A DNA stretch of 64,000 nt from contig JBAZZQ010000001.1 of the NCBI GenBank assembly GCA_041658725.1, positions 96,938 through 160,937 of the forward strand, written 5' to 3'. Shown piece by piece: positions 4,856 to 31,293 of the stretch. This stretch comes from Phycisphaerae bacterium. Lineage in GTDB: Bacteria > Planctomycetota > Phycisphaerae > JAAYCJ01. Positions within the stretch are counted from its first letter, which is position 1; every line of letters begins with the position of its first letter. The notes below the pieces were generated by a model. It was not told where the DNA came from and made no database searches. It worked only from the letters and a program-made list of their open reading frames with translations. The position numbers and the translations under genes were made by a program.

Positions 4856-6544
4856 ATGGCAGCGAAAAAGTTGGCATTTGATACCGAAGCACGAGACGCC
4901 ATCCGCCGGGGCATCAAACAGTTGGCCCGGGCGGTCAAGGTTACGCTCGGTCCGTGCGGACGTAATGTCGTGATAGAAAAATCCTACGGAGCGCCCACGG
5001 TAACCAAAGACGGAGTCACCGTCGCCAAGGAAGTGGAACTGGACGACGCCTACGAAAATATGGGCGCACAGATGGTCAAGGAAGTGGCCTCCAAAACCTC
5101 GAACATCGCCGGAGACGGCACGACGACCGCTACGATCCTCGCCGAAGCGATTTTCGATGAAGGTCTTAAAAACGTGGCCGCAGGGGCCAACGGTATGGAT
5201 ATCAAACGCGGCATCGACAAAGCCGTCGAAGCCGTAGTGGCCGAACTCAAGAAAATGTCGGTCAAGGTCGAATCCGAAAAGCAGATCGCACAGGTCGCGA
5301 CCTGCGCCGCCAACCAGGACCAGGAAATCGGCAACGAGATCGCCCAGGCTATGCAGAAGGTCGGAAAAGACGGAGTGATCACAGTCGAAGAAGGTAAGTC
5401 CCTGGACACCGTGGTGGACCTGGTGGAAGGAATGCAGTTCGACCGCGGATACATCAGCCCGCATTTCATCACCGACCCGGAAAATATGCAGGTCGTCATG
5501 GAAAAGGCTTTCATTTTGATCTACGAAAAGAAGCTCTCTTCCGCCAAGGATTTAATTCCAGTTCTGGAAAAGGTAGCCAAGGCCGGAAGACCCCTGCTCA
5601 TCATCGCCGAAGATATCGAAGGTGAAGCACTGGCCATGCTCGTCGTCAACCGCCTCCGCGGTATCCTCCAGTGCTGTGCGGTAAAAGCTCCCGGATTTGG
5701 CGATCGACGAAAATCCATGATGGATGACATCGCCGTCCTGACCAATGGCAAAGCGATTTTTGAAGATCTCGGGATCAAGCTCGAAAGTATCGAGCTGACG
5801 GACCTGGGAACCGCAAAGACGATCAAAATCGATAAGGAAAATACCACCCTCATCGAAGGCGGCGGAAAGCATGAAGCCATCAAAGGCCGCATCGAGCAAA
5901 TCAAAAACGAAATCGACAAGACCACCAGCGACTACGATCGTGAAAAACTCGAAGAGCGGCTGGCCAAGCTGGCCGGTGGTGTGGCTCAGGTGAAAGTCGG
6001 AGCCGCCACTGAAGTCGAAATGAAAGAGAAAAAGGCACGGGTCGAAGACGCCCTGCACGCGGCCCGCGCTGCCGTCGAAGAAGGCGTATTGCCCGGCGGC
6101 GGAGTGGCCATCCTGCGATGCCTGAAGGTCATCGACAAATTGAAACTCACCGGTGACCAGAAGACCGGTGCCGAGATCGTTAAACGGGCGATGACGGCCC
6201 CGATCAAGCAGATCGCCGAAAACGCCGGTCTGGATGGCTCCATCATTTGTCAAAAGGTCATGGAAAATACCGACAATCCGAATTTCGGTTACGACGCACT
6301 GGCTGGCAAGTATGGCGACATGATGGCCTTCGGCGTGATCGTTCCGACCAAGGTCGAGCGGATCGCCCTCCAGAACGCTGCCAGTATCGCCGGTTTACTG
6401 CTGACCACCAGTTGCGTGGTGGCGGAAATCCCCGAAGAAAAGAAAGCCCCGATGCCCGGTGGCGGCGGCCACGGCGGTGGAATGGGTGGCATGGGAGGTA
6501 TGGGCGGCATGGGTGGCATGGGCGGAATGCCTGGTATGATGTAA
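4856..6544 (+). CDS. groEL: Chaperonin GroEL
   Basis: 562 aa with canonical Cpn60 sequence throughout, including the C-terminal GGM repeat tail ([19 protein letters not shown]). Confidence 0.95.
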
Positions 6545-6600
6545 GATAAGAGACGATAAAAAGAGTTTTGTAAAAAATTCTCTTTGTATCTTTAATAAAC

Positions 6601-6650
6601 GGAGCAAACCTTTCGTTCTCCTTTTGGTTTGCTCCGTTTTCTTTTTTGCT
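6601..6650 (+). terminator. Rho-independent terminator downstream of groEL
   Basis: Stem ggagcaaacc/ggtttgctcc followed by gttttcttttttg. Confidence 0.7.
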
Positions 6651-6811
6651 GTAACCATTCAGGCCTAGGACCTCTCCCGTGATTATTGTCTCTCTTTTAT
6701 AATTGTCCGGTCAAGCCGGACAATCCAGTCCTTTTTTTCGTGTCCGGTAGAGCACCCCTGGATCGTCCGGTAAGCCGGATGATGACAATGAGGGTGGTCT
6801 GAACGGTTACT
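6650..6811. repeat. Palindromic intergenic element, copy B (arms gtaaccattcaggcc...ggtctgaacggttac) enclosing two caagccgga hairpins
   Basis: Outer arms are reverse complements. The internal hairpins ttgtccggtcaagccggacaa and tccggtaagccgga are related to the cores of copies A and C. Confidence 0.5.
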
Positions 6812-6879
6812 TTTTACGCAATTTCGAAATTGATATTCCAAAATCTTTGGTATAATTGGCGCAAAACGGGAGGTGAAAA

Positions 6880-7390
6880 TTGTTATCTGTACCAAAATAC
6901 GCGCTCGGAATGGTCGGCCTGGGAGTCATGGGTCGAAACTTATTATTGAATATGGCTGAGCACGGTTACTCGGTGGCGGGATATGACACGGACCTTGAGA
7001 AAGTTCAAGCTCTGAACACTGAAGGTCATGGCCGCGATGTTCAAGGGGTCAAAAGCATCGAGGAATTGGTGAAATTAAAGCGTTCCCCGACCCATCATCC
7101 TACTGGTCCCCGCCGGTGGACGCGGTCATCCGGGAATTTTGACAATATCTCCAGCCGGGTAACGTGATCATCGACGGCGGCAATTCGCACTTTGTCGATA
7201 CCGACCGACGGCAAAAAATGCTTTCTGAAAACCGAATCGATTTTCTCGGTGGGGGGATCTCCAGCGGTGAATACGGTGTCCGGCACGGCCCCAGCCTCAT
7301 GACCAGGGGAACTTGACAAGCTTACGAAAAAGATCAAACCCATCCTTGAAGCGGTCGCTACAAAAGTCGAGCTAGACAGGTTTGGCAAAA
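6880..7390 (+). pseudogene. gnd: Decayed 6-phosphogluconate dehydrogenase (gnd) N-terminal remnant with multiple frameshifts, truncated after ~170 codons
   Basis: MGLGVMGRNLLLNMAEHGY is the Gnd NAD(P)-binding N-terminus. Downstream Gnd-like segments (PRPIILLVPAGG, PVDAVIREF, GNVIIDGGNSHF, FLGGGISSGEYG, GPSLM) appear in three different frames with in-frame stops. The remaining ~300 codons are absent. Confidence 0.6.
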
Positions 7391-7402
7391 TTGAATGTTA
7401 AA

Positions 7403-7436
7403 TTCATTCTAACATTCTTGAGAATGATAGAATGAT
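7403..7436. repeat. 34-bp palindromic element (attcattctaacattcttgagaatgatagaatga), left copy flanking the ArsR-family gene
   Basis: Near-perfect dyad ttctaacattc-NN-gaatgttagaa. A second copy lies at 7831-7864. Confidence 0.7.
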
Positions 7437-7491
7437 GCTTCCTCCAAATTTACTTCTGAGGGTAGTTATTTTTATCTAATTTTGAAGGCCT

Positions 7492-7764
7492 CTATCGGAT
7501 TTTTTTTAAGAACATCAGAATATTACTCCCGCGATCGGTCAATTTGTGACGAATACTTTTTCCGTCGGAACGTTTCATCACCAGACCGGAAATAGCCAAA
7601 CGCTTTGTATGCGCGGATATTGTCTTAAAGTTGACTCTGAGGTTTTCCGCGATCTCATCCACAGAAAGTTCAGGATTATTTTCCAAAAGGTGCATAATCT
7701 GTATTCTCCGATGGTTGGCATATCCTTTAGTCACACCTTCAAGTCGTCGAAAATTTTCCATCAA
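7492..7764 (-). CDS. ArsR/SmtB-family winged-helix transcriptional regulator
   Basis: 90 aa. HRRIQIMHLLENNPELSVDEIAENLRVNFKTISAHTKRLAISGLV matches the ArsR HTH signature. Confidence 0.7.
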   Translation of the reverse strand: MMENFRRLEGVTKGYANHRRIQIMHLLENNPELSVDEIAENLRVNFKTISAHTKRLAISGLVMKRSDGKSIRHKLTDRGSNILMFLKKIR

Positions 7765-7830
7765 TTCAAAACCTCGTTAAAATATATTTTGCGTATTATT
7801 GACCCATAAATACGATGATTTGTCAAGGGT

Positions 7831-7864
7831 ATTCATTCTAACATTCTCAAGAATGTTAGAATGA
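7831..7864. promoter_or_regulatory. Second copy of the 34-bp palindrome, ~70 bp upstream of the ArsR-family gene start (candidate operator)
   Basis: attcattctaacattctcaagaatgttagaatga. It differs from the 7403 copy only at the dyad centre and one arm position. Confidence 0.5.
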
Positions 7865-8060
7865 CTTAACTGAATAAAAACGTTCTTCTGATCCCTTCGG
7901 TGCGATCATAGGCAGCGCCTACGAAATATCTTACCTACCCAACACAGTGCCGGATAACTTACTAACCTCTCTCCAGATCAGCATGAGACAAGAGAACTTC
8001 ACCCATAGATCGCTTTGGACTTAACGTGCAAGAATATGCACAAACGTTTTTGTCTGTCCA

Positions 8061-8471
8061 TTGAATATGAAACCGAATAAAATATCTTTTATAGATTACC
8101 GTGGAAAGGACGCCGATATGAAACTAACCGAAATCGCCCGGGAACTTGATCTTGAACCGCTAACGCCTGAAATTCTTTCCGATGCTTCACCGGATATTAC
8201 GGCTGGGTATGTGTCCGATCTATTAAGCGACGTTTTGGCTCATGCCCCCGCGCAGGGGGTTCTGGTCACGGTCCAGGTCCACATGAACGTGATCGCCGTG
8301 GCGGTGCATGCGAATTTGACGGCCGTGATCTTCGCCGCAGATCGCCGACCCGAACCACCGGTCATCGAAAAGGCGATGGCGGAAAAAATTACCCTCTTTG
8401 TTTCGAAAGATTCCTCGTTTGCAATCGTCGGTAAGTTGTATTCTATGGGATTGCGAGGACCTTGTGCGTGA
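8061..8471 (+). CDS. DRTGG domain-containing protein (hydrogenase-cluster accessory protein)
   Basis: 136 aa with the DRTGG-like core. Order is as in known hydABC-associated DRTGG/PHP/ATPase trios. Confidence 0.55.
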   Translation: MNMKPNKISFIDYRGKDADMKLTEIARELDLEPLTPEILSDASPDITAGYVSDLLSDVLAHAPAQGVLVTVQVHMNVIAVAVHANLTAVIFAADRRPEPPVIEKAMAEKITLFVSKDSSFAIVGKLYSMGLRGPCA

Positions 8472-9205
8472 AACGCTTCCTGGCCGATCTGCACATCCAT
8501 ACCGCTCTTTCACCTTGTGCATCAGAGGAAATGACTCCGCCTGCCATCGTAACAGAATCGATCGGCCTGGGTTTACACCTGATCGCCATTTGCGATCATA
8601 ATTCGACGGGTAATATTTCCGCTGTTCAAAAAGCCGCCGGGAATAAAATCGTCGTGCTGGCGGGAATTGAAATCACGACAGCGGAGGAGGTTCACATCCT
8701 CGGTATCTTTCCAGATCCGCTATCCGCCTCCGCCGTCGGCAAAAAAGTGCTTGCCACTCTTCCCGAATCGACCAATGCGTCGCGAGGGTTCGGAGAGCAA
8801 CTTTTAATGGACGAAACCGGCAAGGTCCTCGCCACGGAAAACAAGATTCTTTCTTTCGCGTCGTCTTTCACTTTATCCCAGACTGTAAAACTGATCAAAG
8901 ATTATAAGGGTCTTGTCATCGCCTCGCACATAGATCGGCCGTCCTACAGCGTGCTAAGCCAGCTCGGAATTTTTCCCAATAACGCCGGATTCGACGCGGT
9001 TGAAGTCTCACCCGCGGGTTTGGCGTCGTCGCGTGCCGCGATCTACTCCGCTCCGGGTCTGCCCATCGTTACCTCCTCCGACAGCCACGACCTGACGACC
9101 ATCGGCACCTGCTACTCCATGCTCGAAATGAAAAAACCGACCTTTGAAGAACTGGCCCTGACGCTTAAAGGCATCGGCGAGCGGAGGATTTACAACAGTG
9201 CGTGA
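8462..9205 (+). CDS. PHP-domain (polymerase/histidinol-phosphatase-like) metal-dependent phosphoesterase
   Basis: LADLHIHTALSPCASE...IAICDHNS...IASHIDRP motifs of the PHP fold. Overlaps the DRTGG gene by 10 nt, consistent with translational coupling. Confidence 0.65.
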   Translation: MCVKRFLADLHIHTALSPCASEEMTPPAIVTESIGLGLHLIAICDHNSTGNISAVQKAAGNKIVVLAGIEITTAEEVHILGIFPDPLSASAVGKKVLATLPESTNASRGFGEQLLMDETGKVLATENKILSFASSFTLSQTVKLIKDYKGLVIASHIDRPSYSVLSQLGIFPNNAGFDAVEVSPAGLASSRAAIYSAPGLPIVTSSDSHDLTTIGTCYSMLEMKKPTFEELALTLKGIGERRIYNSA

Positions 9206-9734
9206 CCTATCCCTTCACATCCTCGACTTGATCGAAAACTCCATCCGAGCCCAAGCCACCATCGTGGCCGTCACCGTCGAGCAAAACACCCAAAAAAATA
9301 TTTTACGAATCGTCATCGAAGACAACGGCCCAGGTTTAAGCATCACCCCCGAGCAGGCCACCGATCCCTTTTATACCACCAAAGAAGGCAAACGCACCGG
9401 CCTGGGTCTGAGCCTGTTTCGCACCACGGCAGAACTTGCCGGCGGAACGCTCACCCTCGCAAAATCAAATTTAGGCGGTTTGGCCGTCGAAACTGTCATG
9501 GAATTAAATCACATTGACCGCCGTCCCCTCGGCGATCTTTCCGCCACCTTCTTTACCATCGCCTGCACCAACCCCAAAATCGACCTCTGGTGCCGATTGA
9601 TTACCGACAATCAAAATCACCTCGTGAAACTTTCCGAGATCGCCGGCGAGCTTTTCCACGAAAAACAAAATTGCTTCGCCATTGCCCAAAAATTTTCTGA
9701 AAAAATCAAAAATAAGCTGTCAATTCTTGCTTGA
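9198..9734 (+). CDS. GHKL/HATPase_c-type ATP-binding protein (histidine-kinase-like ATPase, no sensor or DHp domain)
   Basis: HILDLIENSIRAQAT...IVIEDNGPGL...GLGLSL are the N, G1 and G2 boxes of a Bergerat fold. Overlaps the PHP gene by 8 nt. Confidence 0.6.
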   Translation: MRDLSLHILDLIENSIRAQATIVAVTVEQNTQKNILRIVIEDNGPGLSITPEQATDPFYTTKEGKRTGLGLSLFRTTAELAGGTLTLAKSNLGGLAVETVMELNHIDRRPLGDLSATFFTIACTNPKIDLWCRLITDNQNHLVKLSEIAGELFHEKQNCFAIAQKFSEKIKNKLSILA

Positions 9735-10109
9735 CTACAATGATTCCTTTCGTTATACTACCCTGCGCAACGCGGTTCGTGCAGACGTTTATTTTTTTGA
9801 ATCCAACCGTATTAGGATTGGCTCCCAAAAAGCTCTTTGAAAAGTAAATCTACGTCATAAGGCTGAAAATATCAATAGCTTTAAAGTTTAATAGTGCACT
9901 TCTGATAAAGTTCACAAACTCAATGAGGTAAAATAAAAAATCGTCACATTTTTCACAGTTTCTTTTTTTTATGCTTTAGATTGTTACTTTTTTCACAGTG
10001 CGTGTTTTTGTCGATTTAGGCTTGTGACCTGAAAGTGACAGGATTTCCAAAAATGACTCAGCTTTTGATCCTTCGAAATGCATAGGCACAATGTTGTATG
10101 CCCCTTCAT

Positions 10110-10215
10110 TTTGCAGAATCGATAACCGTTGTGCCACGGCCGGCTTGTCCAGCCGTATCTTTAAAGAGCACGGCCGGACAAGCCGACCGTGGCACAATAG
10201 GAGCTGAACGGTTAC
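10110..10215. repeat. Palindromic intergenic element, copy C, in the 520-bp gap upstream of the hydrogenase structural genes
   Basis: taaccgttgtgccacggccggcttgtccagccgt...acggccggacaagccgaccgtggcacaataggagctgaacggttac. Arms are reverse-complementary and closely related to copy A. Confidence 0.6.
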
Positions 10216-10255
10216 CGGAATAGATCATCATATTGATAACTTTTTTTCGAAAGAA

Positions 10256-10801
10256 ATGGAGATTAAGATGAGCGGTGAAAAATGCAAATGCGCGTGTAGC
10301 CAGGAAGTATCGGAAGAGCAGCTTCTGACCCGGCTTGACGAGGTGCTCACTGAGTATCACGACAAGCCTGGGGCGCTGATTCCCGTGCTGCAGATTGCCC
10401 AGGGCATTTTCGGGTATCTGCCCGAATCGGCCCTCAAGCGGATCAGCCTGGGATTGAACAAGTCGTACAGCGAAGTGGCAGGCGTGGTGGGATTTTATTC
10501 CTTTTTCTCGACCGTTCCCCGCGGTAAACACCTGATTCGTGTTTGCCTGGGAACCGCCTGTTATGTTCGCGGTGGAAAGCGCGTTTTGGATGTCCTTAAA
10601 CAAAAATTGGGAATCGACGTTGGTGGAACGACACCGGACCGGATATTTTCACTTGATGTCGCACGGTGTTTCGGTGCGTGCGGATTGGCTCCGGCGATCA
10701 GCATCGACGACGAAGTCCACCAGCGGGTCAAACCTACCAAAATTAACGAAATCCTCGATCAATACCGCGATAAAGACGCGGCAGATCAGAAGGGAGCATA
10801 A
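10256..10801 (+). CDS. hydC: NuoE-like thioredoxin-fold [2Fe-2S] subunit of NADH-dependent [FeFe] hydrogenase (HydC-type)
   Basis: CLGTACYVRGGKRVLD...ARCFGACGLAP. This has the Cys spacing and flanking sequence of NuoE/HoxE/HydC. Confidence 0.8.
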   Translation: MEIKMSGEKCKCACSQEVSEEQLLTRLDEVLTEYHDKPGALIPVLQIAQGIFGYLPESALKRISLGLNKSYSEVAGVVGFYSFFSTVPRGKHLIRVCLGTACYVRGGKRVLDVLKQKLGIDVGGTTPDRIFSLDVARCFGACGLAPAISIDDEVHQRVKPTKINEILDQYRDKDAADQKGA

Positions 10802-10803
10802 TC

Positions 10804-11169
10804 ATGGATAACAAAATCAAAAGTCCAGCCGATTTAAAAAATCTTAGAGACAAACTTAAAAGCACCACCGATCTTCGCCAGGGTCCCAAGGAGATTCAGA
10901 TTACCGTTCACATGGGCACGTGCGGGATCGCGGCTGGGGCGAGAGACGTCCTCCAGCAGTTGGCCTCGGAATTAGGCCAGGCCGGTTTGGATAATGTGAC
11001 ACTACGAAATTCCGGCTGCATCGGTCTGTGTGATCGTGAACCGATGATATCCATGATCGACAAGAACGGCGAACAATTCCGCTATGGCAAGCTAGATCGA
11101 AACAAGGTGCATGAAATCGTTCAGAAACATCTGATTAATAACGAACCTGTATTGCAATATACCGTTTAG
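10804..11169 (+). CDS. Small thioredoxin-like [2Fe-2S] ferredoxin (HydD/HndB-like)
   Basis: 121 aa. ITVHMGTCGIAAGARDV...NSGCIGLCDREPM. Confidence 0.7.
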   Translation: MDNKIKSPADLKNLRDKLKSTTDLRQGPKEIQITVHMGTCGIAAGARDVLQQLASELGQAGLDNVTLRNSGCIGLCDREPMISMIDKNGEQFRYGKLDRNKVHEIVQKHLINNEPVLQYTV

Positions 11170-11183: not shown

Positions 11184-14100
11184 ATGGACAACAATATAAG
11201 AACTCACATTCTCGTTTGTGCCGGGGCGGGGTGCGTGGCTTCGGGGTCGCTCGAAGTCAGTGCCGCCTTGCAGGAGTCCCTGGAACGTCAGGGTTTGTCG
11301 GGTGAAACCAAAGTGATCGAAACCGGCTGTCTGGGCCCCTGTGCCGTCGGACCTGTGGCTGTCGTGTATCCCGATGGAATCTTTTACCAGAACGTCAAAC
11401 CCGCCGACGCCGAGGAAATCGTCAAAGAACATATTTTAAAGGGCAGGGTCGTGGAACGGCTGGTTCGCAAGGACAACGACGGTTCAAAGGCCATCCCGGC
11501 GCTCAACCAGATCGACTTTTTCAACGGTCAGCAGCGAATCGTTTTACGCAATTGCGGATTGATCGATCCCTTGCGAATTGAGGAATACATTACCCGCGAC
11601 GGTTATCAGGCCTTGGCGAAGGTCCTGACGGAAATGACTCCGGAGCAGGTTACCGATGTGGTAAAAAAATCCGGCCTTCGCGGCAGAGGCGGGGCGGGTT
11701 TTTCCACGGGTCTCAAGTGGGAATTCACACGAAAGGCCAAAGGCGAACGAAAATTTGTTTTGTGTAACGCCGATGAAGGCGATCCCGGCGCGTTCATGGA
11801 CCGAAGCGTCCTGGAAGGTGATCCGCACAGCGTGATCGAAGCTATGGCCATCGCCGCTTTCGCAATCGGAGCTCATCAGGGGTTTGTGTATGTTCGAGCG
11901 GAATATCCGCTGGCGGTCAGACGACTCGGTGTCGCTCTGGAACAAGCGCGGGACTTTGGATTGCTCGGCAAAAATATCATGGGCACGGGATTTGATTTCG
12001 ATCTGGAAATCCGAATGGGTTCCGGAGCGTTTGTCTGCGGTGAGGAAACGGCTCTGATGACTTCGATTGAAGGTCATCGCGGTGAACCGCGTCCTCGTCC
12101 GCCGTTCCCGGCCAACAAGGGTCTCTGGGGTATGCCCAGTTTGCTTAATAACGTCGAAACTTATGCCAATATTCCCGTCATTATTCTTAAAGGCGCGGAA
12201 TGGTTCGCATCAATCGGGACCGCCAAGAGCAAGGGCACGAAAGTCTTCGCCCTCGCCGGTGCCGTCAATAATACCGGATTGGTCGAAGTTCCCATCGGAA
12301 TGCCGCTCGGTCAGATTATTTATGATATCGGCGGTGGAATCCCCAACGGTAAAAAATTCAAAGCCGCCCAGATCGGCGGACCCTCCGGCGGATGTATCCC
12401 GAAAGAATATTTGAACGTTCCGGTCGATTATGAATCGCTGAACGAACTCGGCGCGATCATGGGTTCAGGCGGATTGATCGTCATGGACGAAGACACCTGC
12501 ATGGTCGATATGGCTCGGTTCTTCCTCGATTTTGTCCAGGATGAATCGTGCGGAAAGTGTCCCCCCTGCCGCATCGGGACCAAACGCATGTTGGAAATCG
12601 TCAACCGCATCTGCGAAGGCCAGGGCGAGGAAGGCGATATCGAAAAATTGATTTCTCTGGGTAATCAGATCAAAGATACCGCTTTGTGCGGCTTGGGCCA
12701 GACGGCGCCAAATCCGGTGCTTTCGACCATTCGCCATTTCCGGCATGAATACGAGGCCCATATCCGTCAGAAGAAATGTCCCGCTGGAGTTTGCGCCGCG
12801 TTCGTCCGGGCTCCTTGCCAAAACGCCTGTCCGGCGGGTGTGGATATTCCCGGCTATGTTTCACTCATCGGCGAAGGACGATACACCGAAGCTTTGAAAT
12901 TACATCGCGAGCGAAATCCATTCGCCGCCGTCTGCTCGCGCGTTTGTTTCCATACCTGCGAAGACAAATGCCGAAGGTCCGCTGTGGACGAATCGGTTTC
13001 CATCCGCGGTCTGAAGCGTTTCATGGTCGAGCAGGAAGTCGATACCCAATTACCGGAAATTCTTCAAAACGACCAAAACGCGAAACGCAAGATTGCGATC
13101 ATCGGAGGAGGGCCTGCGGGTCTGACCTGTGCTTATTTCCTGGCTCGATTGGGCTATAAGCCGAAAGTTTTTGAATCCGAAAATCGGGCTGGCGGAATGC
13201 TGGTCCAGACTATTCCCGCTTATCGGCTGCCTCGTCAGGAACTCGACCGGGAAATCCGGATGATCGAGAAAATGGGAGTAACCATTCAGACCAACGCCCG
13301 GCTGGGAAAAGATTTTACCCTCAAGAGTTTGCGTGATGAAGGATACGAAGCCGTATTCCTCGCCTGCGGCGCGCCGAATGGAAGCCTGCTCGGTATTCCC
13401 GGAGAAAAAGCCACCGGCGTGATCGACGCCATCGGAATGCTCCGCGAATATAACTTGACGGGTAACACCAAAGTCGGACAAAACGTGGTTGTGGTCGGAG
13501 GCGGAAACGCCGCTATCGACGCCGCACGCTGTGCCGTTCGGTTGGGTGCCAAAAGCGTAACTGTCGTCTACCGGCGAACCCGGGCGGAAATGCCCGCCTA
13601 CGCAGAAGAAATCGACGAGGCCCAGCGGGAAGGGGTTCATCTGAACGTCCTGGTCGCTCCGGTGGAAGTCGTCAGCGAATACGGGCACGTAACAGGAATT
13701 AAGTGCCGACGAATGGCGCTGGGCGAATTTGATAAAACCGGTCGCCGAAGTCCGACGGCCAGCGGGCAGGAAGATTTTGTTATCCCCGCCGATCAAATCA
13801 TCGCCGCCATCGGGCAAAGCCTCGATCCGAAGGAATTCTGTGACGGCGTGGAAGTAAAGTTGAACAAACGCCAATATATCGACGTCAATCCGATCAACGG
13901 TCAAACGTCCGTCGAATGGATTTTCGCCGGTGGTGACGTCGCCAGCGGACCTTCCTCGGTCGCCGAGGCCGTCGGAGGTGGAGAACGAGCCGCCGTCGCG
14001 ATCGACCAGTTCCTGACCGGTCAAATCCACGCCTTCTGGCGAGCCGAAACGGCGGTCGATACCTTCTTTGATCCCGATGCCGACGCGGTCCAATATGCCC

Positions 14101-14234
14101 GAGCCAAGATGAGGCTTCTACCCGTCACCAAGCGAAAATGTAATTTCGCGGAAGTTGAATTGACGTGGGAAGAATCCACAGCAGTACGCGAGGCCAAGCG
14201 ATGCCTGCGTTGTGATTATAGAGAAAGTTCATAA
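11184..14234 (+). CDS. hydB: NuoF-like flavoprotein subunit of [FeFe] hydrogenase (HydB-type: N-terminal 2Fe-2S, FMN/NADH site, 4Fe-4S, 2x[4Fe-4S] ferredoxin) fused to a C-terminal GltD/NfnB-like FAD/NAD(P)H pyridine-nucleotide oxidoreductase domain
   Basis: 1016 aa, organised as:
- residues 1-90: thioredoxin-like 2Fe-2S (CAGAGC...CLGPCAVGP).
- NuoF core: GRGGAGFSTGLKWEF, CNADEGDPGAF, ESCGKCPPCRIG.
- ferredoxin cluster motifs: CPAGVCAAF...CQNACPAGVDIP.
- from ~residue 630: IAIIGGGPAGLTCAYFLARLGY...VVVGGGNAAIDAAR...AGGDV, typical of glutamate-synthase small-subunit-like proteins. Confidence 0.85.
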   Translation: MDNNIRTHILVCAGAGCVASGSLEVSAALQESLERQGLSGETKVIETGCLGPCAVGPVAVVYPDGIFYQNVKPADAEEIVKEHILKGRVVERLVRKDNDGSKAIPALNQIDFFNGQQRIVLRNCGLIDPLRIEEYITRDGYQALAKVLTEMTPEQVTDVVKKSGLRGRGGAGFSTGLKWEFTRKAKGERKFVLCNADEGDPGAFMDRSVLEGDPHSVIEAMAIAAFAIGAHQGFVYVRAEYPLAVRRLGVALEQARDFGLLGKNIMGTGFDFDLEIRMGSGAFVCGEETALMTSIEGHRGEPRPRPPFPANKGLWGMPSLLNNVETYANIPVIILKGAEWFASIGTAKSKGTKVFALAGAVNNTGLVEVPIGMPLGQIIYDIGGGIPNGKKFKAAQIGGPSGGCIPKEYLNVPVDYESLNELGAIMGSGGLIVMDEDTCMVDMARFFLDFVQDESCGKCPPCRIGTKRMLEIVNRICEGQGEEGDIEKLISLGNQIKDTALCGLGQTAPNPVLSTIRHFRHEYEAHIRQKKCPAGVCAAFVRAPCQNACPAGVDIPGYVSLIGEGRYTEALKLHRERNPFAAVCSRVCFHTCEDKCRRSAVDESVSIRGLKRFMVEQEVDTQLPEILQNDQNAKRKIAIIGGGPAGLTCAYFLARLGYKPKVFESENRAGGMLVQTIPAYRLPRQELDREIRMIEKMGVTIQTNARLGKDFTLKSLRDEGYEAVFLACGAPNGSLLGIPGEKATGVIDAIGMLREYNLTGNTKVGQNVVVVGGGNAAIDAARCAVRLGAKSVTVVYRRTRAEMPAYAEEIDEAQREGVHLNVLVAPVEVVSEYGHVTGIKCRRMALGEFDKTGRRSPTASGQEDFVIPADQIIAAIGQSLDPKEFCDGVEVKLNKRQYIDVNPINGQTSVEWIFAGGDVASGPSSVAEAVGGGERAAVAIDQFLTGQIHAFWRAETAVDTFFDPDADAVQYARAKMRLLPVTKRKCNFAEVELTWEESTAVREAKRCLRCDYRESS

Positions 14235-14350: not shown

Positions 14351-16123
14351 ATGCCGAAATTAACTATTAACAATATCGAAGTCCAGGCTCCCGAAGGAGT
14401 CTCTATTCTTGAAGCCGCCAAACAAGCAGGCGTCAGGATTCCCACACTCTGCTACCTTGAAAAAGTCCAGGCTATCGGCGCCTGCCGAGTCTGCCTGGTG
14501 GAAGTCGAAGGCGCGAAAACTCTCGTCGCCTCCTGCGTCATGCCGGTCGCGGAAGGGATGAAAGTCCAAACCAACACCAAGCGTGTCCGCGACGCCCGGC
14601 GAACGGTGGTCGAACTGTTGCTGTCCGATCACGACGGCGAGTGCCAAACCTGCGACCGCAACGACGATTGCGAGCTCCAGGCCCTTGCCCGTGAATTGGG
14701 GATACGCGAAATCACTTATCCCGGAGAAAAGAGCAAAAGCGTCATTGATACCAGCACGCCTGCCCTCGTCCGCGATACGGGAAAATGCATCCTGTGCCGG
14801 CGATGCGTAACCGTTTGCGGGACCACACAGGGAGTAGCGGCACTATTCCCGCAAAACCGCGGTTTCAAAACGGTGGTCGGACCCGCATTCTGCTCCGAGC
14901 TTAAAGACGTCGTATGCGTTCAGTGCGGACAGTGCGGCGCTGTTTGCCCAGTCGGGTCCATCGGCGAAAATGATCAGATCGCGGAAGTCTGGGCGGCATT
15001 GGACGATCCGAGCAAGCATGTGGTCGTTCAAACCGCACCCGCCATTCGGGCTGCTTTGGGCGAATGCTTCGGCCTACCCGCAGGAACGCTGGTAACCGGA
15101 AAAATGGTTTCCGCCCTTCGACGGCTTGGATTTGACGCTGTGTTCGATACCAACTTCACAGCCGACCTGACGATCATGGAAGAAGGCACTGAACTGCTGA
15201 CGCGGCTTCAAAAAGCACTGGTCAAAAAGGAAGAAGTAGCCCTTCCCATGTTCACCAGTTGCTCGCCAGGATGGATCAAATTCATGGAACACTTTTACCC
15301 GGACATGCTGCCGAATCTCTCTACGTGTAAATCCCCGCAGCAGATGTTCGGCGCTGTTGCAAAGACCTATTACGCGAAAAAATTAAATAAACGCCCCGAG
15401 GATATTTTTGTCGTTTCGATCATGCCCTGCACCGCCAAGAAATTCGAGTGCCAGCGGCCGGAAATGAATGACAGCGGTGTCCGCGATGTCGATGTGGTTT
15501 TGACGACCCGCGAACTCGGACGGATGATTAAGCAGGCGGGAATTGATTTCGTGTCTCTGCCCGATGACAAGATGGACGCTCCTCTGGGCTTGTCGTCAGG
15601 GGCCGCCGATATTTTCGCCAACACGGGCGGCGTTATGGAAGCGGCATTGCGAACCGCGTATGAAATCATTACGGGTAGAACTTTGCCCTTCGATAACCTT
15701 CACGTCCAGCCCATCGCCGGTCTTGATGGTGTTAAAGAAGCAGCCCTTACGATTACAGGAACCAAACCCGAATGGTCCTTCCTCGAAGGGGCGATTGTGA
15801 AAATCGCCGTCGCGCATGGCCTGGGCAATGCCCGCAGTATCATCGAGCGAATTCGATCCGGCCAGGCGCAGTATCACTTTATCGAAGTGATGACCTGTCC
15901 GGGCGGATGCATCGGCGGCGGCGGTCAGCCGAGAGTAACCACCGACGAGGTCCGAAAGGCCAGGATCGCCGCGATCTACCGCGAGGATGAAGGCAAAAAA
16001 ATGCGAAAATCCCACGAGAACGCGGAAGTAAAACAGATTTATGAGGAATTCCTGGGTCGTCCCCTCGGTGAAAAATCGCATCACCTGCTGCACACCAAGT
16101 ACATCGTCCGTGAGCGGGTGTAA
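14351..16123 (+). CDS. hydA: [FeFe]-hydrogenase catalytic subunit HydA (M3, CpI-like architecture) with atypical L1 motif
   Basis: 590 aa. N-terminal 2Fe-2S (CYLEKVQAIGACRVC), accessory FeS motifs (CQTCDRNDDC, CILCRRCVTVC, CVQCGQCGAVCP). H-cluster motifs L2 (MPCTAKKFE) and L3 (EVMTCPGGCIGGGGQP) are canonical, but L1 reads TSCSPGW rather than TSCCPxW. Confidence 0.85.
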   Translation: MPKLTINNIEVQAPEGVSILEAAKQAGVRIPTLCYLEKVQAIGACRVCLVEVEGAKTLVASCVMPVAEGMKVQTNTKRVRDARRTVVELLLSDHDGECQTCDRNDDCELQALARELGIREITYPGEKSKSVIDTSTPALVRDTGKCILCRRCVTVCGTTQGVAALFPQNRGFKTVVGPAFCSELKDVVCVQCGQCGAVCPVGSIGENDQIAEVWAALDDPSKHVVVQTAPAIRAALGECFGLPAGTLVTGKMVSALRRLGFDAVFDTNFTADLTIMEEGTELLTRLQKALVKKEEVALPMFTSCSPGWIKFMEHFYPDMLPNLSTCKSPQQMFGAVAKTYYAKKLNKRPEDIFVVSIMPCTAKKFECQRPEMNDSGVRDVDVVLTTRELGRMIKQAGIDFVSLPDDKMDAPLGLSSGAADIFANTGGVMEAALRTAYEIITGRTLPFDNLHVQPIAGLDGVKEAALTITGTKPEWSFLEGAIVKIAVAHGLGNARSIIERIRSGQAQYHFIEVMTCPGGCIGGGGQPRVTTDEVRKARIAAIYREDEGKKMRKSHENAEVKQIYEEFLGRPLGEKSHHLLHTKYIVRERV

Positions 16124-16244: not shown

Positions 16245-16652
16245 ATGCAAAAAAAACTGCCCCTAATTCTTCTGATCGACGACGACCCGGACTTTACTGC
16301 GATGAACAAACTCATGCTTGAATCCAACGGGTATCGTATCCTTTGTACCCACGATTCGCGGGAGGCTTTAAAAAAGATGGCAGAGGATAAACCTTCACTG
16401 GTCATTACCGATTTAATGATGCAAAATCTGGATTCAGGGTTCGCTTTTTCCCGTCAGATGAAGCAGGACCCGCGATTCAAAGATATCCCGGTCATCATTC
16501 TGACCTCGGTCAGCAGTCAGCATGGATTTGATTTTCATCCGCGGAGCGGCGAGGAACTTTCCGCTATGAACGCCGACGCCTTTTTTGAAAAACCGATTTC
16601 CTCTAAAATCCTTCTCAAAAAAGTCGAGGAACTTATCAAACGAAATATTTAA
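16245..16652 (+). CDS. Single-domain response regulator (CheY-like receiver)
   Basis: LILLIDDDPDF...LVITDLMMQNLDSGFAF...IPVIILTS is a canonical REC domain with no output domain. Confidence 0.7.
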   Translation: MQKKLPLILLIDDDPDFTAMNKLMLESNGYRILCTHDSREALKKMAEDKPSLVITDLMMQNLDSGFAFSRQMKQDPRFKDIPVIILTSVSSQHGFDFHPRSGEELSAMNADAFFEKPISSKILLKKVEELIKRNI

Positions 16653-19765: not shown

Positions 19766-21114
19766 ATGGTATTACAAGAATCCGAAATTCTGGAACTCAA
19801 AAAGTCCACCGCGGAATTGAAGGAAGCGGTGATTTCTATCGGTGCGATCCTGAACAAGCATCAGGGCGGCTTGCTCTATTTCGGTGTGAAGAACGATGGG
19901 ACCCCGCGGTCGGTCAGGCGGTCGGTGATAAAACCGTCCGCGACATCTCGAAGGCCATTGCCGACCACCTTGAGCCGAAGATCTACCCGGAAATCAAACC
20001 GGTAACCTTCAGCGGAAAGTCATGCATTGAGGTCCGGTTTTCTGGAAAACAAGTTCCCTATTTTGCATTTGGCCGCGCGTACATCCGCGTGGGCGACGAG
20101 GACAGGCAACTGTCCGCCAAGGGAATTGAGTCGTTTATTCTCAAGAAAAATTTTGAGGCGGTTCGCTGGGAATCCCAAGTCTCAACCCAAAACGAAAACG
20201 ACCTGGATGTCGATCTGGTCAAGCGCTTTGTCCGCAAAGCCAACCAGGCGGGACGAATCAGGTTCAAGTTTCGTTCGGTTGGAGAAACCCTGAAAAAACT
20301 CGGCCTGCTTCAGGGTGGACATATTCTTCGGGCTGCCGAGGTGCTTTTCAGTTCCCATCCGCCCCTGAAGATTCAGGCGGCGGTCTTCACCGGGACCGAC
20401 AAACTGACATTTCTGGACATCCGACAATTCGAGGGCAATCTTTTTTTCCTGCTCTTGGTGGCCGAAGAATACCTGAAAGAAAAAATGAACTGGCGGGTGA
20501 AGTTCGGAAAACTTCAGCGAGAGGAAATACCCGAGATTCCGCTGGAGGCCTTGCGGGAGGCCCTGGTGAACTCCGTGTGCCACCGCGATTATTGCTCCCC
20601 GGAAAGCAATTACCTGGCCGTCTACAAGAACCGGATCGAGATTGAAAACCCCGGCGAGTTCCCAGAAGGGTTTGAGCCGGAGGATTTCATTTACAAGGGA
20701 GAACGTTCTGTTCTTCGTAACCCCCTGATTGCCGATGTGCTTTATCGCACACGGGACATCGAGAAATGGGGGTCCGGGCTCAAGCGGATTCACGACGAGT
20801 GCGCCGGGCACGACATCAAGGTGGAATTCCAGAAGATGAAGGCTGGTTTTAAGGTGGTCTTTTATCGAAGCGTTCCTACGGCACAGACGCCTCCGACACC
20901 TACCCCCCAAACTACCCCCCAAACTACCCTCAATATTCAAGCCACGATTTTGGCACTGATTCGGGAGATTCCGGCAATCACGAAGGAAGAACTTGCCCGA
21001 CGGTTGAACCTGACCATCGACGGGATCAAGTACCATATCCGCAAGCTTCGAAGACAAGGCGTACTGCTTTGGGAAGGCCCCAGCAAGGCCGGGCATTGGA
21101 AGATCAAGGCCTAA
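19766..21114 (+). pseudogene. AlbA_2 (Schlafen-like, divergent AAA) / HATPase_c_4 / C-terminal wHTH protein ('RecG C-terminal-like' putative regulator), interrupted by a frameshift near 19905
   Basis: The N-terminal AlbA_2 motif (ESEILELKKS...LLYFGVKNDGTPR) is in one frame (19766-20005). Continuation (GQAVGDKTVRDISKAIADHLEPKIYPEIKPVTFSGKS...MGDEDRQ...) is in the +1 frame up to 21114. The shift lies inside the tandem ggtcggtcaggcggtcggtg. Confidence 0.6.
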
Positions 21115-21396
21115 ACATGGAATTGCGCCGTCCGCGCAAAAAAGCCCGCGAATCTTAAAACAGCGAAAAGGGGACAAAGGGGTCATAATGGGGTCAAAAA
21201 AGGGACATGAAGCGGGGGTTATACCAAGAAAAAGAATTCCGGAAAGCGGGATATTTTCTTTCTTGCTGAAATGGGCTTTTTAAACCAAAATGACCGGTTG
21301 TTGTTCGATACGATAGTCAGGGTGTACGGCATGTCGTGTTGCTTCAATTGGCCAGCCACATTCCATCATAATCGTGGTTTCTCCGCAAACTTGGCG

Positions 21397-23160
21397 TCAT
21401 TGCAGCCGGTTCAAAAGCGCCAGGAAATTCCGTTTGCGTCCGTGAGCGGCCCGGAGAGTTTGTAGATACGAAGCAAATTCCGTTTCTTGATTTGCTGTTT
21501 TCAAGAGCGCCCGGATTTTCTTGATCCAGGTGACGGCGTCCTTGTAATTATCGTTTCCCCCGTGGCTGATCAGTTTCTCAACGTGCTTCCGATAAATGGG
21601 AATGGCATCGACGGGATGTTCCTTTTCCCGCAACCGAGCCAGTTCCATCCACAGGTCGTCGGAGCAACCTCCGGCCAGGGCCTCCGTCCATGCGGTCTCG
21701 GCATCCTTTTCCCACAGATAAATCCGGACAAGAAGCGAATGGTCTCTTGGGGTTGACCAATCATATCGACGAGCCTCTTTTTTTTCCTGGACGATCTTTT
21801 TTTGAATAAAGGCCAAAGCCTGCTCGCGCCATCGCGGCCAATCTTTAACACGTTCCGCATGCGTCTTGAGTTCCTGATACGAGTGCAAGTCGGGTCGGTC
21901 TTCCAGGTTGGCCCAGATCAATTTCATGGCCTCGTCGTGCCGTTTCTGCCTATGATACTCTTCGGCCAAGAAGGTGCGAAGTTGGGAGTCCGGTCGTTCG
22001 AGAAACGCCTTCAGACCGTCTTGGGCCCATTGGATTGCCCGGTCGTATTTCTTGTTCTCCCGGTAAAGCTGCGCGATCGCCAGGTAGTGATGGGCGGCGG
22101 ACAAGTCACGGCTCTTGACGGCCACCAGAGCCTCAATGTCCCCTTGTCTCTCGGCCAGGTTTTCCATAATCGATTTTAAACCGTAGCGTCGATGATCGTA
22201 AGAATCCTCCCGCTGTCCGGGTTTTAATGCAGGTAGCTTGTTCCACTCGGTCTCCACCAGTTTGCGGAACGCGGCCAGGCCTTTTTCCCCCAGGACATCC
22301 GAATAGGTTTCCACCGTATGGTTAAAAACATTACCGTAATCGTCCATCTCCCATTCAAACAATTGCCGGGCCAATCGTTCCGGATCGGGTTTGGCCGCCA
22401 CGCAGGCGTCGTGGTGCAGTTCCTGCAACTCCTCAAAAGTATCCCCGATCCAGCCGTCGGAATCATCCGCTACCCGCGAGATTTGTTCAAAGCGATCCAT
22501 CGCATATTCGACCAGTTCCAACACCTCTTTGATATGCCCCTCCTTCAGCAAGTCTCTGAAATTCTTGATGATCTCGTCTAAATTACGAGTGGCTTCATAC
22601 GGCGATTCGTAATCCGAATAGTCTCCCCCTCCGACCGCGTGATCGATGGCCTTGCGGATGGCGGCTGAATTTATCCCTTGTTGGCCGGTCCGCGACATTT
22701 TCATCATCAACCGGCCCAGAAGTTTTTCATCGTCCATAGCCTGACTCATGATGACTTCCACCAGGGCGGAAACTTCTTGAGTTTGAAGGAATTTGCGCAG
22801 GTCCTCCATCGACGGGGCTTTTTCCTTTTTTGAAGATTCGGTTCGACCGTGATCCGCCTTGCCCGGTTCCGCGCCTTTTTCCAGATATGCCAGCCCGGCC
22901 GCCACACAATGCTTGCAGAACTCCCCCTCCTGACCGAAAGGACAGTTACACTCGCCGTCCAGTTTGTCCTTGTGCATCCATAGCTTGACCTTGTACGTAT
23001 GGGTCCCCCGCACCTTGGCAACGATGACCCCATTATCCTCAACCAGAGAAATCACCGCCCCTTCATGAAAGTAATCCACCCCCCGCTGCCAGGACCCGGA
23101 GCCCGCTAATTGCTTCAATTTTGCCTTCGTGAATTCCATATTACCTAATTCATTACCCAT
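21397..23160 (-). CDS. SWIM zinc-finger domain protein with long helical/TPR-like C-terminal region
   Basis: GECNCPFGQEGEFCKHCVAAGLAY is a CxCxnCxH SWIM finger near the N-terminus. A start at 23160 (MGNELGNMEF) overlaps the upstream gene's stop in an ATGGGTAA arrangement; the ORF-track start at 23367 is probably too early. Confidence 0.55.
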   Translation of the reverse strand: MGNELGNMEFTKAKLKQLAGSGSWQRGVDYFHEGAVISLVEDNGVIVAKVRGTHTYKVKLWMHKDKLDGECNCPFGQEGEFCKHCVAAGLAYLEKGAEPGKADHGRTESSKKEKAPSMEDLRKFLQTQEVSALVEVIMSQAMDDEKLLGRLMMKMSRTGQQGINSAAIRKAIDHAVGGGDYSDYESPYEATRNLDEIIKNFRDLLKEGHIKEVLELVEYAMDRFEQISRVADDSDGWIGDTFEELQELHHDACVAAKPDPERLARQLFEWEMDDYGNVFNHTVETYSDVLGEKGLAAFRKLVETEWNKLPALKPGQREDSYDHRRYGLKSIMENLAERQGDIEALVAVKSRDLSAAHHYLAIAQLYRENKKYDRAIQWAQDGLKAFLERPDSQLRTFLAEEYHRQKRHDEAMKLIWANLEDRPDLHSYQELKTHAERVKDWPRWREQALAFIQKKIVQEKKEARRYDWSTPRDHSLLVRIYLWEKDAETAWTEALAGGCSDDLWMELARLREKEHPVDAIPIYRKHVEKLISHGGNDNYKDAVTWIKKIRALLKTANQETEFASYLQTLRAAHGRKRNFLALLNRLQ

Positions 23161-24100: not shown

Positions 24101-24145
24101 GGTGAAATTATCGCAGAGTCGCGAGGGGATGGCAAGGGCAGGATT

Positions 24146-25048: not shown

Positions 25049-25217
25049 GTCCCCGATGGCCGGGACGTGCTCAACCTCATCAATGCTAAAATTTATGGGA
25101 AGAAATAACTTTTCTTCGACATTCGCCTTGACAAAATTTCAATCCTCGGCGACAACAATAATAATCCAAGGGCGCGTAGCCCTTGAAAACTTTTTCTATT
25201 AGGATAGGAGACCAATC

Positions 25218-25298
25218 ATGGCAAAAGCCGCTGCAAAGAAAAAAGCACCCGCGAAGAAACCAGTAGCCGCCAAGAAGAAATCCTGCGGCTGCAAGTAA
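25218..25298 (+). CDS. Putative 26-aa Lys/Ala-rich peptide (MAKAAAKKKAPAKKPVAAKKKSCGCK)
   Basis: GGAGA RBS 7 nt upstream of the ATG, and a strong bidirectional hairpin/T-run terminator 55 nt downstream. Composition resembles histone-H1-like tails. It falls below the 60-aa ORF-track cutoff. Confidence 0.3.
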   Translation: MAKAAAKKKAPAKKPVAAKKKSCGCK

Positions 25299-25352
25299 AA
25301 CGATTCGTTGAAACTCACTCAATGGGTCCGCCTTGAAAGGATTCAAGGTAAC

Positions 25353-25406: not shown

Positions 25407-25422
25407 CCGGTTGTTAAACCGA

Positions 25423-31284: not shown

Positions 31285-31293
31285 AAGTTGCGG

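Follow-up and report, generated by a model that had tools for sequence, protein, structure and literature searches.

A [FeFe]-hydrogenase flavoprotein of a Phycisphaerae bacterium in which an StnC/NfnA-like module appears to take the place of the ferredoxin-like domain of HydB

Can a [FeFe]-hydrogenase of the bifurcating type use NADP(H) where its relatives use ferredoxin? The question is raised by a locus on contig JBAZZQ010000001.1 of a Phycisphaerae bacterium, a metagenome-assembled genome (MAG), from which a stretch of 64,000 nucleotides (nt), here called the window, was analysed. A gene at 11184..14234 on the forward strand encodes a NuoF/HydB flavoprotein and, in the same chain, a GltD/NfnB-like oxidoreductase with predicted sites for flavin adenine dinucleotide (FAD) and NADPH (Table 1). 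A previous sequence-only reading had described a complete HydB with a GltD-like domain appended. Is the fusion genuine? Where do the two halves meet? Which of the known GltD-type modules does the second half resemble, and how might electrons pass through it? We consider these points in turn.

The fusion is real and widespread. The gene is one unbroken frame of 1016 codons from ATG to stop, Pfam domains of both halves are found in the product, and NCBI holds an identical protein (MFA5863143.1, on a 189-kb contig). Proteins of approximately 1010-1045 residues make up nearly all of the 120 best database clusters, at 72-83% identity and 99-100% coverage; a single shorter entry of 879 residues occurs among them. 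A scan of species-representative genomes, one per species, was made with the C-terminal 517 residues as query, and 583 of the 599 matched stretches encode a relative of this half. Counts of loci given here and below refer to the 80 best of at least 583 such stretches. These loci are 62-79% identical and span more than ten phyla, including Planctomycetota, Hydrogenedentota, Kiritimatiellota, Verrucomicrobiota, Lentisphaerota, Spirochaetota, Bacteroidota, Omnitrophota and Acidobacteriota, together with MAGs labelled Accumulibacter, Nitrospiraceae, Chitinivibrionales and Kapaibacterium. At all 80, a single stop-free frame covers both the NuoF and the GltD half, and the gene order hydC-(hndB)-fusion-hydA is kept wherever the contig reaches far enough. 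Carriers in culture include Vallitalea guaymasensis L81, Syntrophus gentianae DSM 8423, Desulfotignum balticum DSM 7044 and Marispirochaeta associata JC231 (locus L030). Since the 120 best clusters and the 80 best loci share the in-frame fusion, a frameshift that makes two genes appear as one is excluded. The earlier claim of a single polypeptide therefore stands, and the database search that had been suggested for the same fusion finds it in abundance.

The closest genomic relative (L001, 79% identical, at approximately 5312-8551 of its own stretch) has a stop-free fusion frame of only 822 residues that begins within the NuoF part, with the N-terminal 190 or so residues behind a stop or in another frame. 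This split is likely to be a frameshift or assembly error of that MAG.

Conservation was assessed over 70 full-length fused proteins, the present one and 69 from the loci, with identities of 62-80% in the N-terminal half and 60-72% in the C-terminal half. Strictly invariant in all 70 are Cys12, Cys17, Cys49 and Cys53; Cys456, Cys459, Cys462 and Cys502; His526, Cys532 and Cys537; Cys545, Cys549, Cys584, Cys588, Cys592 and Cys596; Lys611; Cys1007 and Cys1010; and, in the nucleotide-binding regions, Gly641, Gly643 and Gly646, Arg681, Gly772, Gly774 and Ala777, the Tyr796-Arg797-Arg798 triad and Gly916-Gly917-Asp918. On alignment, then, the cofactor-binding residues predicted for both halves are all present and invariant in the family, including those for FAD and NAD(P), the lack of which would have spoken against the assignment made from the sequence.

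The N-terminal half is closely related to HydB. The NCBIfam model nuoF_fam matches residues 129-527, and the GltD/NfnB-like models PRK12771, PRK12814 and gltA match from approximately 496 to 1012. Solved HydB/StnB chains of proven bifurcating enzymes (7t2r_B, 7q4v_B, 8a6t_B, 8oh5_B, 9bov_B, 9n5u_B and 7p5h_B) align from residue 6 to approximately 540-545 only, with E values of 4e-246 to 6e-191, and the first four of these follow the NuoF core end to end. The last segment shared with HydB is HIRQKKCPAGVC, in which His526, Cys532 and Cys537 are matched in all the aligned chains. Zn is reported at the B2 site of bifurcating enzymes (PMC11829005), and the three residues are the putative motif of that site. 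In addition, the residues described as specific to bifurcating BfuB subunits, a GGPSG loop with Ala, Met and Phe around the flavin mononucleotide (FMN) (PMC12018979), are present and invariant as Ala203, Met205, Phe283 and GGPSG 398-402.

Beyond this point the likeness to HydB ends. The ferredoxin-like domain that carries clusters B3 and B4, with its CxxCxxCxxxCP motif, was sought in the fusion with Pfam and by motif reading; there is no Fer4 match, nor does the motif occur after Cys537. A GltD-type PCxxxCP begins at Cys545/Cys549, just eight residues past Cys537. The B3/B4 domain has thus been replaced by the GltD module, not extended or supplemented by it. The previous reading took the first 620 or so residues as a standard HydB with its own pair of [4Fe-4S] clusters. 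The NuoF core, FMN site, [2Fe-2S] domain and B1 cluster of that description are indeed present, but the junction lies at approximately residues 538-545 and both [4Fe-4S] sites (545-596) are of the GltD/DPD-II type. The picture of a complete HydB with an appended GltD fails too, as the alignments with solved HydB chains stop near residue 542 and the module stands where B3/B4 would be. With B3/B4 replaced, the predicted NADP(H) site would therefore sit at the place where ferredoxin is normally reduced and not on an additional branch. A second pyridine-nucleotide site, as first proposed, is supported at the sequence level to the extent that an NADPH-type site with FAD shares a polypeptide with the FMN/NADH site; it is placed instead of the ferredoxin domain.

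Table 1. Features of the fused gene, its product and the surrounding operon (nucleotide positions in the window; residues of the encoded protein)
Feature	Position (nt)	Strand	Residues	Basis or remark
Fused hydB::gltD-like gene	11184..14234	+	1016 aa	identical to NCBI MFA5863143.1
Thioredoxin-like 2Fe-2S domain			6-82	Pfam
Complex1_51K (FMN)			160-331	Pfam, E 6e-43
SLBB			355-403	Pfam
NADH_4Fe-4S (NuoF four-helix bundle)			442-526	Pfam, E 4e-35
Fer4_20 (DPD domain II, GltD-type 2x[4Fe-4S])			532-620	Pfam, E 2e-21
Pyr_redox_2			636-933	Pfam, E 3e-34
N-terminal thioredoxin-like [2Fe-2S] domain, B5 site	11199..11429	+	Cys12/17/49/53	Pfam; four Cys invariant in 70/70
NuoF core: FMN/NADH, SLBB, four-helix bundle with B1 [4Fe-4S]	11661..12761	+	Cys456/459/462/502	Pfam and alignment
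H526-x5-C532-x4-C537 motif (HIRQKKCPAGVC), last HydB-homologous segment	12759..12794	+	526-537	alignments end here; invariant in 70/70
DPD-II/GltD-type domain, two [4Fe-4S] (predicted)	12804..13043	+		Pfam Fer4_20; alignment to 9bov_A/8oh5_C
FAD and NADPH Rossmann domains (predicted)	13089..14018	+	GGGPAG 641, R681, GGGNAA 772, YRR 796-798, GGD 916-918	Pyr_redox_2; invariant in 70/70
Circularly permuted element (...KCNFAEVELTWEESTAVREAKRCLRC), distal-cluster CxxC (predicted)	14121..14213	+	980-1010	alignment; Cys1007/Cys1010 invariant
hydC/bfuC, NuoE-like, C1 [2Fe-2S]	10256..10801	+	181 aa; Cys97/102/138/142	Pfam 2Fe-2S_thioredx, E 9e-47
hndB/bfuD-like, thioredoxin-like protein	10804..11169	+	121 aa	Pfam 2Fe-2S_thioredx, E 1e-6
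hydA/bfuA, [FeFe]-hydrogenase catalytic subunit	14351..16123	+	590 aa	NCBIfam FeFe_hydrog_A6
PHP-domain protein	8462-9205	+		Pfam
Stand-alone GHKL (HATPase_c) ATPase	9198-9734	+		Pfam; overlaps PHP gene
Receiver-only response regulator, 3' of hydA	16245..16652	+		Pfam Response_reg, E 1e-17

The closest solved relatives of the C-terminal half (residues 521-1016) are Csac NfnA (9bov_A, E 9e-122), Tsi NfnA (9n5u_A, 1e-105) and Sporomusa StnC (8oh5_C, 2e-105), in keeping with the Stn/Nfn-type resemblance noted earlier. Weaker matches follow in the order NfnB (4ylf_B, 3e-85), NfnL (5jca_L, 3e-77), GltD (2vdc_G, 3e-53) and DPD (5e-52). The motifs read in the sequence are GGGPAG at 641, GGGNAA at 772, Tyr-Arg-Arg at 796-798 and FAGGDV at 914-919. 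Two GxGxxG motifs and an AGGDV signature for FAD had been reported; the signature and the first glycine-rich motif are as described, while the second is GxGxxA. This motif and the sequence VYRRTRAEMPA (795-805), both invariant, align with the corresponding motifs of 8oh5_C, 9bov_A, 9n5u_A, 4ylf_B and 5jca_L. The fusion displays the GxGxxA plus YRR(T/S)xxEMPA combination that binds the 2′-phosphate in the NADPH-dependent StnC, NfnA and NfnB.

Two further details distinguish the module. The first concerns Lys611, which shares an alignment column with Lys170 of StnC and Csac NfnA (Lys165 in the Tsi enzyme); NfnB and NfnL have glutamate there. In StnC and NfnA this lysine ligates the [4Fe-4S] cluster adjoining FAD, and PMC11829005 gives Cys108, Cys147, Cys151 and Lys170 as the ligands of cluster A7 of Csac NfnA. 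By analogy with Csac NfnA, the proximal cluster would be held by Cys549, Cys588, Cys592 and Lys611, and the distal cluster by Cys545 and Cys596 together with Cys1007 and Cys1010 of the tail. The second is the tail itself, which is no spare extension. The last 35 residues align with residues 14-43 of 4ylf_B and 16-46 of 5jca_L, at the opposite end of the chain, but with approximately 530-569 of StnC/NfnA. They represent a permuted piece of GltD with an invariant CxxC and, judged by these alignments, the fusion carries the same circular permutation as StnC/NfnA. The protein ends just past the CxxC because the element that contains this motif has been moved to the C-terminus. By the alignment, the lysine, the permutation and the YRR motif make the NADPH-input module of StnC/NfnA (Nfn-Bfu), a non-bifurcating type, the nearest relative of the added module. 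A NfnB-like character with a bifurcating FAD is disfavoured, given the Lys ligand instead of Glu and the operon's lack of an NfnA/S-type partner.

A C-terminal truncation had been suspected, the NCBIfam model PRK12771 being matched over positions 4-511 of 566 only and the protein stopping six residues past the CxxC. It was ruled out: the 70 homologues also stop no more than a few residues from this CxxC, and the tail corresponds to the permuted N-terminal element of NfnB. We also considered whether Arg681, equivalent to Arg201 of NfnL and invariant in the 70 proteins, marks a bifurcating FAD. It is uninformative, as the residue is also conserved as Arg239 of the non-bifurcating StnC, where it makes no contact with FAD N5. 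A separate observation concerns Cys584 (nt 12933-12935, in AVC584SRVC), which is invariant in the fusions. Thermotoga maritima NfnB has it too, whereas StnC, the two NfnA structures and Pyrococcus furiosus NfnL do not. Possibly it serves the proximal cluster as an alternative ligand, a role that has been discussed for Cys114 of StnC.

The fusion lies in an operon of order hydC-hndB-hydB::gltD-hydA, the four-gene Hnd/BfuABDC type and not the trimeric HydABC type previously assumed. HydC is most similar among solved structures to bifurcating BfuC/HydC (7t2r_C, 3e-41; 8a6t_C, 5e-40). HydA scores 908 bits against a cut-off of 765 with the NCBIfam model ­FeFe_hydrog_A6 (group A6 NADH-dependent [FeFe] hydrogenase), its best solved matches are bifurcating HydA1 chains (7q4v_A, 2e-191; 8a6t_A, 3e-188), and the H-cluster motifs P1-P3 are intact (TSCSPGW, MPCTAKK and EVMTCPGGCIGGGGQ). 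The HndB/BfuD-like protein resembles the N-terminal domain of BfuB (9n5u_B, 2e-14), and a gene for it is found at a minority of the related loci. It has only three cysteines (40, 72 and 76) where a Cx4C...Cx3C [2Fe-2S] site requires four, and may be free of a cluster or use a non-Cys ligand. Among the 38 open reading frames (ORFs) of the window that were scanned there is no Fer4-type ferredoxin gene, the dicluster domain of HydA excepted, and none of the NfnA/S or GltB type. Genes of the last two types are likewise missing between hydC and hydA at the 80 loci.

How does this arrangement compare with known systems? The architecture has already been published from genomes, and the present protein is a new member. 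An enlarged HydB with the same fusion was described from the genome of Vallitalea guaymasensis L81 by Schouw et al. (Microorganisms 2018, PMC6163223), who speculated on a link to glutamate. A 2024 study of Hydrogenedentota (mSystems, PMC11406978) defined a sub-type I BfuABDC in which B3/B4 of BfuB give way to DPD_II and a FAD/NAD(P) domain, named Spirochaetota, Pseudomonadota, Planctomycetota, Verrucomicrobiota, Kiritimatiellota and Thermodesulfobacteriota as phyla with relatives, and proposed that FAD forms a second bifurcation centre. The present operon shares with sub-type I the BfuB architecture, the gene order C-D-B-A, an M3a-type HydA and a P1 motif with Ser at position 5; there is no architectural difference, the protein simply being a Phycisphaerae member. 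Four Hydrogenedentota loci (L014, L023, L024 and L042) are 67-69% identical in the C-terminal half, and one of them, L023, is the exemplar MAG of that study, CSSed162cmA_463. The Lys ligand, the circular permutation and the nearer relationship with StnC/NfnA, compared with NfnB, are absent from the 2018 and 2024 papers and are noted here. No solved chain spans both halves of the fusion.

With the HydABC/HndABCD and NiFe-HydABCSL enzymes (7q4v, 8a6t, 7p5h and 7t2r) the operon has HydA, HydC and residues 6-542 of the fusion in common, which align end to end. The predicted B5, FMN, B1, Zn-site and C1 ligands and the signature residues of Bfu enzymes are all there; the difference is the B3/B4 domain, which in solved Bfu enzymes ends the low-potential branch and reduces ferredoxin; in its place are approximately 475 residues of NADPH/FAD module. 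StnABC/NfnABC (8oh5, 9bov and 9n5u) share the BfuBC core, the predicted Lys-ligated proximal cluster, a CxxC after the Rossmann domains and the YRRTxxEMPA motif. In those enzymes, however, the module is inserted in a NuoG-like A subunit that has no H-cluster and feeds the mid-potential input branch, whereas in the present fusion it belongs to the B subunit, follows directly after the Zn-site motif in what would be the low-potential output position, and is accompanied by an A subunit that is a true hydrogenase. NfnAB/NfnSL (4ylf and 5jca) and GltD (2vdc and 6s6s) have two [4Fe-4S] clusters, FAD and NADPH sites and an Arg by the flavin, as predicted here, but the Glu ligand, N-terminal CxxC and NfnA/S partner of NfnB/NfnL are absent. 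GltD works with GltB, which is missing from the operon and the related loci, and NCBIfam GltD models score below their cut-offs on the fusion. The group A2 glutamate synthase-linked hydrogenases of HydDB (PMC5037454) also combine a GltD-like protein with a [FeFe]-hydrogenase. The rule for that group calls for a GltD-like gene without NuoF beside hydA; the neighbour here contains NuoF, and the enzyme is therefore filed as A3 (bifurcating) and its GltD part goes unnoticed.

The explanation that we favour, at slightly less than an even chance for the whole of it with wiring and coupling included, is that the fusion is the BfuB/HydB subunit of a Bfu-type [FeFe]-hydrogenase in which B3/B4 have been exchanged for an StnC/Nfn-BfuA-type module, so that NADP(H) replaces ferredoxin. 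In solved Bfu enzymes the third substrate communicates through the A subunit with B1 and FMN, NAD(H) reacts at FMN, and a mobile domain of the C subunit, as the carrier of low-potential electrons, connects the B1-FMN-C1 site with B3/B4. We infer a corresponding wiring from sequence order and homology. Electrons of the H-cluster would pass through the clusters of HydA to B1 and FMN, where NAD(H) would react; the path from C1, on the mobile domain of HydC, would then lead to the distal [4Fe-4S], the Lys-ligated proximal [4Fe-4S], FAD and NADP(H) in place of the path from C1 to B3/B4 and ferredoxin. The net reaction would interconvert 2 H2 + NAD+ + NADP+ with NADH + NADPH. Bifurcation or confurcation, if any, would occur at the B1-FMN-C1 site, and FAD would act purely as a converter between two-electron and one-electron steps. 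That FAD is predicted to be a plain converter follows from the Lys ligand of the Stn/NfnA type, its position on the domain map as the terminus of one chain of two clusters and the absence of an NfnA/S-type partner nearby; the same argument has been made for the FAD of StnC and Csac NfnA. In the stronger form of this explanation, held more tentatively still, the enzyme would be a ferredoxin-independent bifurcating/confurcating hydrogenase, with electrons from H2 split at B1-FMN-C1 between NAD+ on the high-potential side and NADP+, reached through the fused FAD, on the low-potential side.

Thermodynamic estimates are compatible with such a role. Taking potentials in vivo from the Bfu literature, approximately -280 mV for NAD and -380 mV for NADP, the latter would serve as the low-potential partner instead of ferredoxin. 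The mean for NADH plus NADPH, -330 mV, equals that of the H+/H2 couple at 1.4e-3 bar H2; the corresponding equilibrium pressures are 0.15 bar for NADH plus ferredoxin and 3e-5 bar for NADH by itself. Below about 1.4e-3 bar NADH and NADPH would be vented as H2, and above it H2 would make NADPH and NADH, a value that fits fermenters and syntrophic habitats at low H2.

There are also considerations that weigh against the exchange of ferredoxin for NADP(H). The predicted NADPH specificity of the FAD-side site is read from a sequence motif. An AlphaFold2 model built on 44 aligned sequences was too poor to place the GltD module relative to the C1 cluster of HydC: mean pLDDT was 72 and pTM 0.46, the FeS loops and residues 962-1016 fell below 50, and the domain placement is unreliable. 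Ferredoxin could dock on the surface cluster of the module, by analogy with NfnL. The span of 100 mV between NAD and NADP is small for bifurcation, and coupling may not be obligatory. Finally, literature searches found no biochemical or structural study of a HydB-GltD fusion.

Should NADP(H) indeed replace ferredoxin, there would be consequences beyond this operon. Bfu-type enzymes hold a central place in anaerobic H2 metabolism, and their mode of bifurcation is still debated. Models of H2 in anoxic sediments, digesters and guts would mis-assign a sizeable group of NuoF-linked hydrogenases as bifurcating between NADH and ferredoxin. Annotation of these proteins as NuoF would conceal a second substrate site. 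The coupling of H2 to NAD+ and NADP+ would be a reaction class undemonstrated for Bfu enzymes, and fermenters living at about 1e-3 bar H2 or below could discharge both nucleotide pools as H2, or use scarce H2 to produce NADPH. A soluble nucleotide would then allow the low-potential branch of a Bfu enzyme to be followed spectrophotometrically. To a specialist who knows the 2024 paper the result would come as no surprise; what is new is the prediction that the module, being of the Stn/NfnA type, is non-bifurcating, which contradicts the published two-centre hypothesis. With this prediction, of a non-bifurcating Stn-type module wired into the low-potential branch and of H2:NAD+/NADP+ coupling that may be independent of ferredoxin, the family lends itself to testing the Bfu mechanism.

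The best surviving alternative, although we consider it unlikely, is an enzyme with four substrates, in which the GltD-type clusters stand in for B3/B4 and still handle ferredoxin while FAD and NADPH provide an extra exit or entry on the low-potential branch. Such an enzyme would add ferredoxin:NADP+ reductase or Nfn-like transhydrogenase activity to that of HydABC (H2 with NADH and ferredoxin). In NfnSL the electrons for ferredoxin do pass through both [4Fe-4S] clusters of the homologous subunit, the distal cluster has to be accessible at the surface to the mobile domain of HydC, and in Tsi NfnABC the ferredoxin sits between the C-terminal domain of the C subunit and the cluster domain of the B subunit. 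The host, apparently a sugar fermenter, is likely to produce reduced ferredoxin. However, the fusion lacks the ferredoxin-fold domain from which solved Bfu enzymes build their docking tripod, NADP+ on the same branch would drain low-potential electrons and short-circuit the reduction of ferredoxin, and neither the operon nor the scanned ORFs of the window include a ferredoxin gene.

Less probable again is an uncoupled dual-nucleotide hydrogenase, non-bifurcating like HydABC of Syntrophomonas wolfei, with NADH reacting at FMN, NADPH at FAD and both feeding the H-cluster. That HydB lacking B3/B4 has been reported as non-bifurcating is in line with it, as are the simple electron-input type of the FAD module, indicated by Lys611, and the estimate that NAD(P)H-driven formation of H2 is feasible without ferredoxin at environmental H2 pressures. 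It does not sit well with the invariant features of bifurcating BfuB that non-bifurcating relatives lack, namely the N-terminal [2Fe-2S], the His/Cys/Cys Zn-site motif, GGPSG and Ala203/Met205/Phe283, or with the retention of the C1 cluster by HydC.

The least likely of the three enzyme-level alternatives, and in our view very improbable, is the postulate of PMC11406978 that two bifurcation centres exist, a NfnB-like FAD besides B1-FMN-C1, which is close to the NfnB analogy drawn at the outset. It has been published as a hypothesis, NfnB/NfnL are homologues of the module (3e-85 and 3e-77) and Arg681, the equivalent of NfnL Arg201, is conserved. Yet the predicted proximal ligand is Lys as in the non-bifurcating StnC/NfnA and not Glu, the same Arg makes no N5 contact in StnC, and on the domain map one chain of two clusters leads to FAD and stops there. 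The operon and the 80 loci encode no NfnA/S-type [2Fe-2S]/FAD partner, and therefore no second exit path from FAD would exist, an argument also used for Csac NfnA. An artefact of assembly or frameshift (the window does come from a MAG), or a GltD domain working for glutamate synthase, along the glutamate link floated in the 2018 Vallitalea paper, can be dismissed, the former refuted by the same in-frame fusion at 80/80 loci and in the 120 best clusters, the latter finding no GltB-type gene in the operon, the other 34 window ORFs scanned or the hydC-hydA interval of related loci, and true GltD only among the relatives of weakest similarity (2vdc_G, 3e-53).

Fusions of NuoF with GltD are not confined to this lineage. 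At the level of 50%-identity representatives there are at least 13 distinct clusters of such proteins of about 1000 residues, down to 34% identity, and among the clusters listed an intact FMN motif, the equivalent of Lys611 and a terminus at the CxxC occur together only in the present lineage and P0121. The more distant fusions (P0122, P0129, P0130, P0134, P0135, P0137, P0153, P0174, P0176 and P0248) are varied. Some have Glu, as in NfnB, or His at the position of Lys611 and a degenerate FMN motif GRGGAG; others have a Cys-rich, ferredoxin-like C-terminal extension of approximately 135 residues and lack the N-terminal [2Fe-2S]. Three proteins of about 650 residues (P0210, P0222 and P0238) consist solely of the NuoF four-helix bundle with its [4Fe-4S] and the permuted GltD module, and the His/Cys junction motif is partly kept in the first two only. 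These shorter proteins match the PRK12771-type NAD(P)-binding protein of NCBIfam and may be the evolutionary source of the C-terminal half or a truncation product of the fusion. Geobacter SfrB may be of this bundle-plus-GltD type. Given the varied clusters and the 650-residue forms, the joining of NuoF to GltD appears to have occurred or diversified several times.

The hydrogenase operon is flanked by the PHP, GHKL and receiver genes of Table 1. The arrangement recurs at L001, L004-L008, L016, L017, L022 and L027, the closest Phycisphaerae/Planctomycetota loci, and in no other phyla, with the receiver-only regulator at the same spot in several of the related loci; the three genes may be a lineage-specific regulatory set. 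A non-coding leader of 520 nt (9735-10255) precedes hydC. The best sigma-70-like match in the region is TTGACT-17-TATACT at 9731-9759. In the leader, two tandem direct copies of a 40-nt repeat (9940-10019, 73% identical) each contain TTTTTCACAGT, and a 28-nt inverted repeat (10129-10156/10170-10197, 93% complementary, 13-nt loop) lies approximately 60 nt 5' of the hydC ATG. No Rfam family was matched across the whole window, leader included. These elements are possibly an operator or attenuator of the hydrogenase operon.

The remaining genes of the window include GH38, GHL6, a sugar kinase, an MFS protein and dockerin, and this content points to a saccharolytic anaerobe. A region at 20000-40000 resembles a mobile or defence island, with genes for HATPase_c_4/HTH (20089-21114, +), DUF6880 (21397-23367, -), ArdC-N (24146-25048, -), Schlafen AlbA_2 with HATPase_c_4 (26739-28376, -) and DUF2958 (36989-37846, -), as well as several large ORFs that have no Pfam match, for example 34826-36958. 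A RACo-type corrinoid reductive activator is encoded at 1870-3804 on the reverse strand, and a cluster for sugar-acid and sugar catabolism at 41459-54470 comprises an E1 dehydrogenase with alpha and beta fused in a single polypeptide (41459-43633), a LarA-like protein (45881-47170) and a fusion of PfkB kinase with HAD phosphatase (52554-54470).

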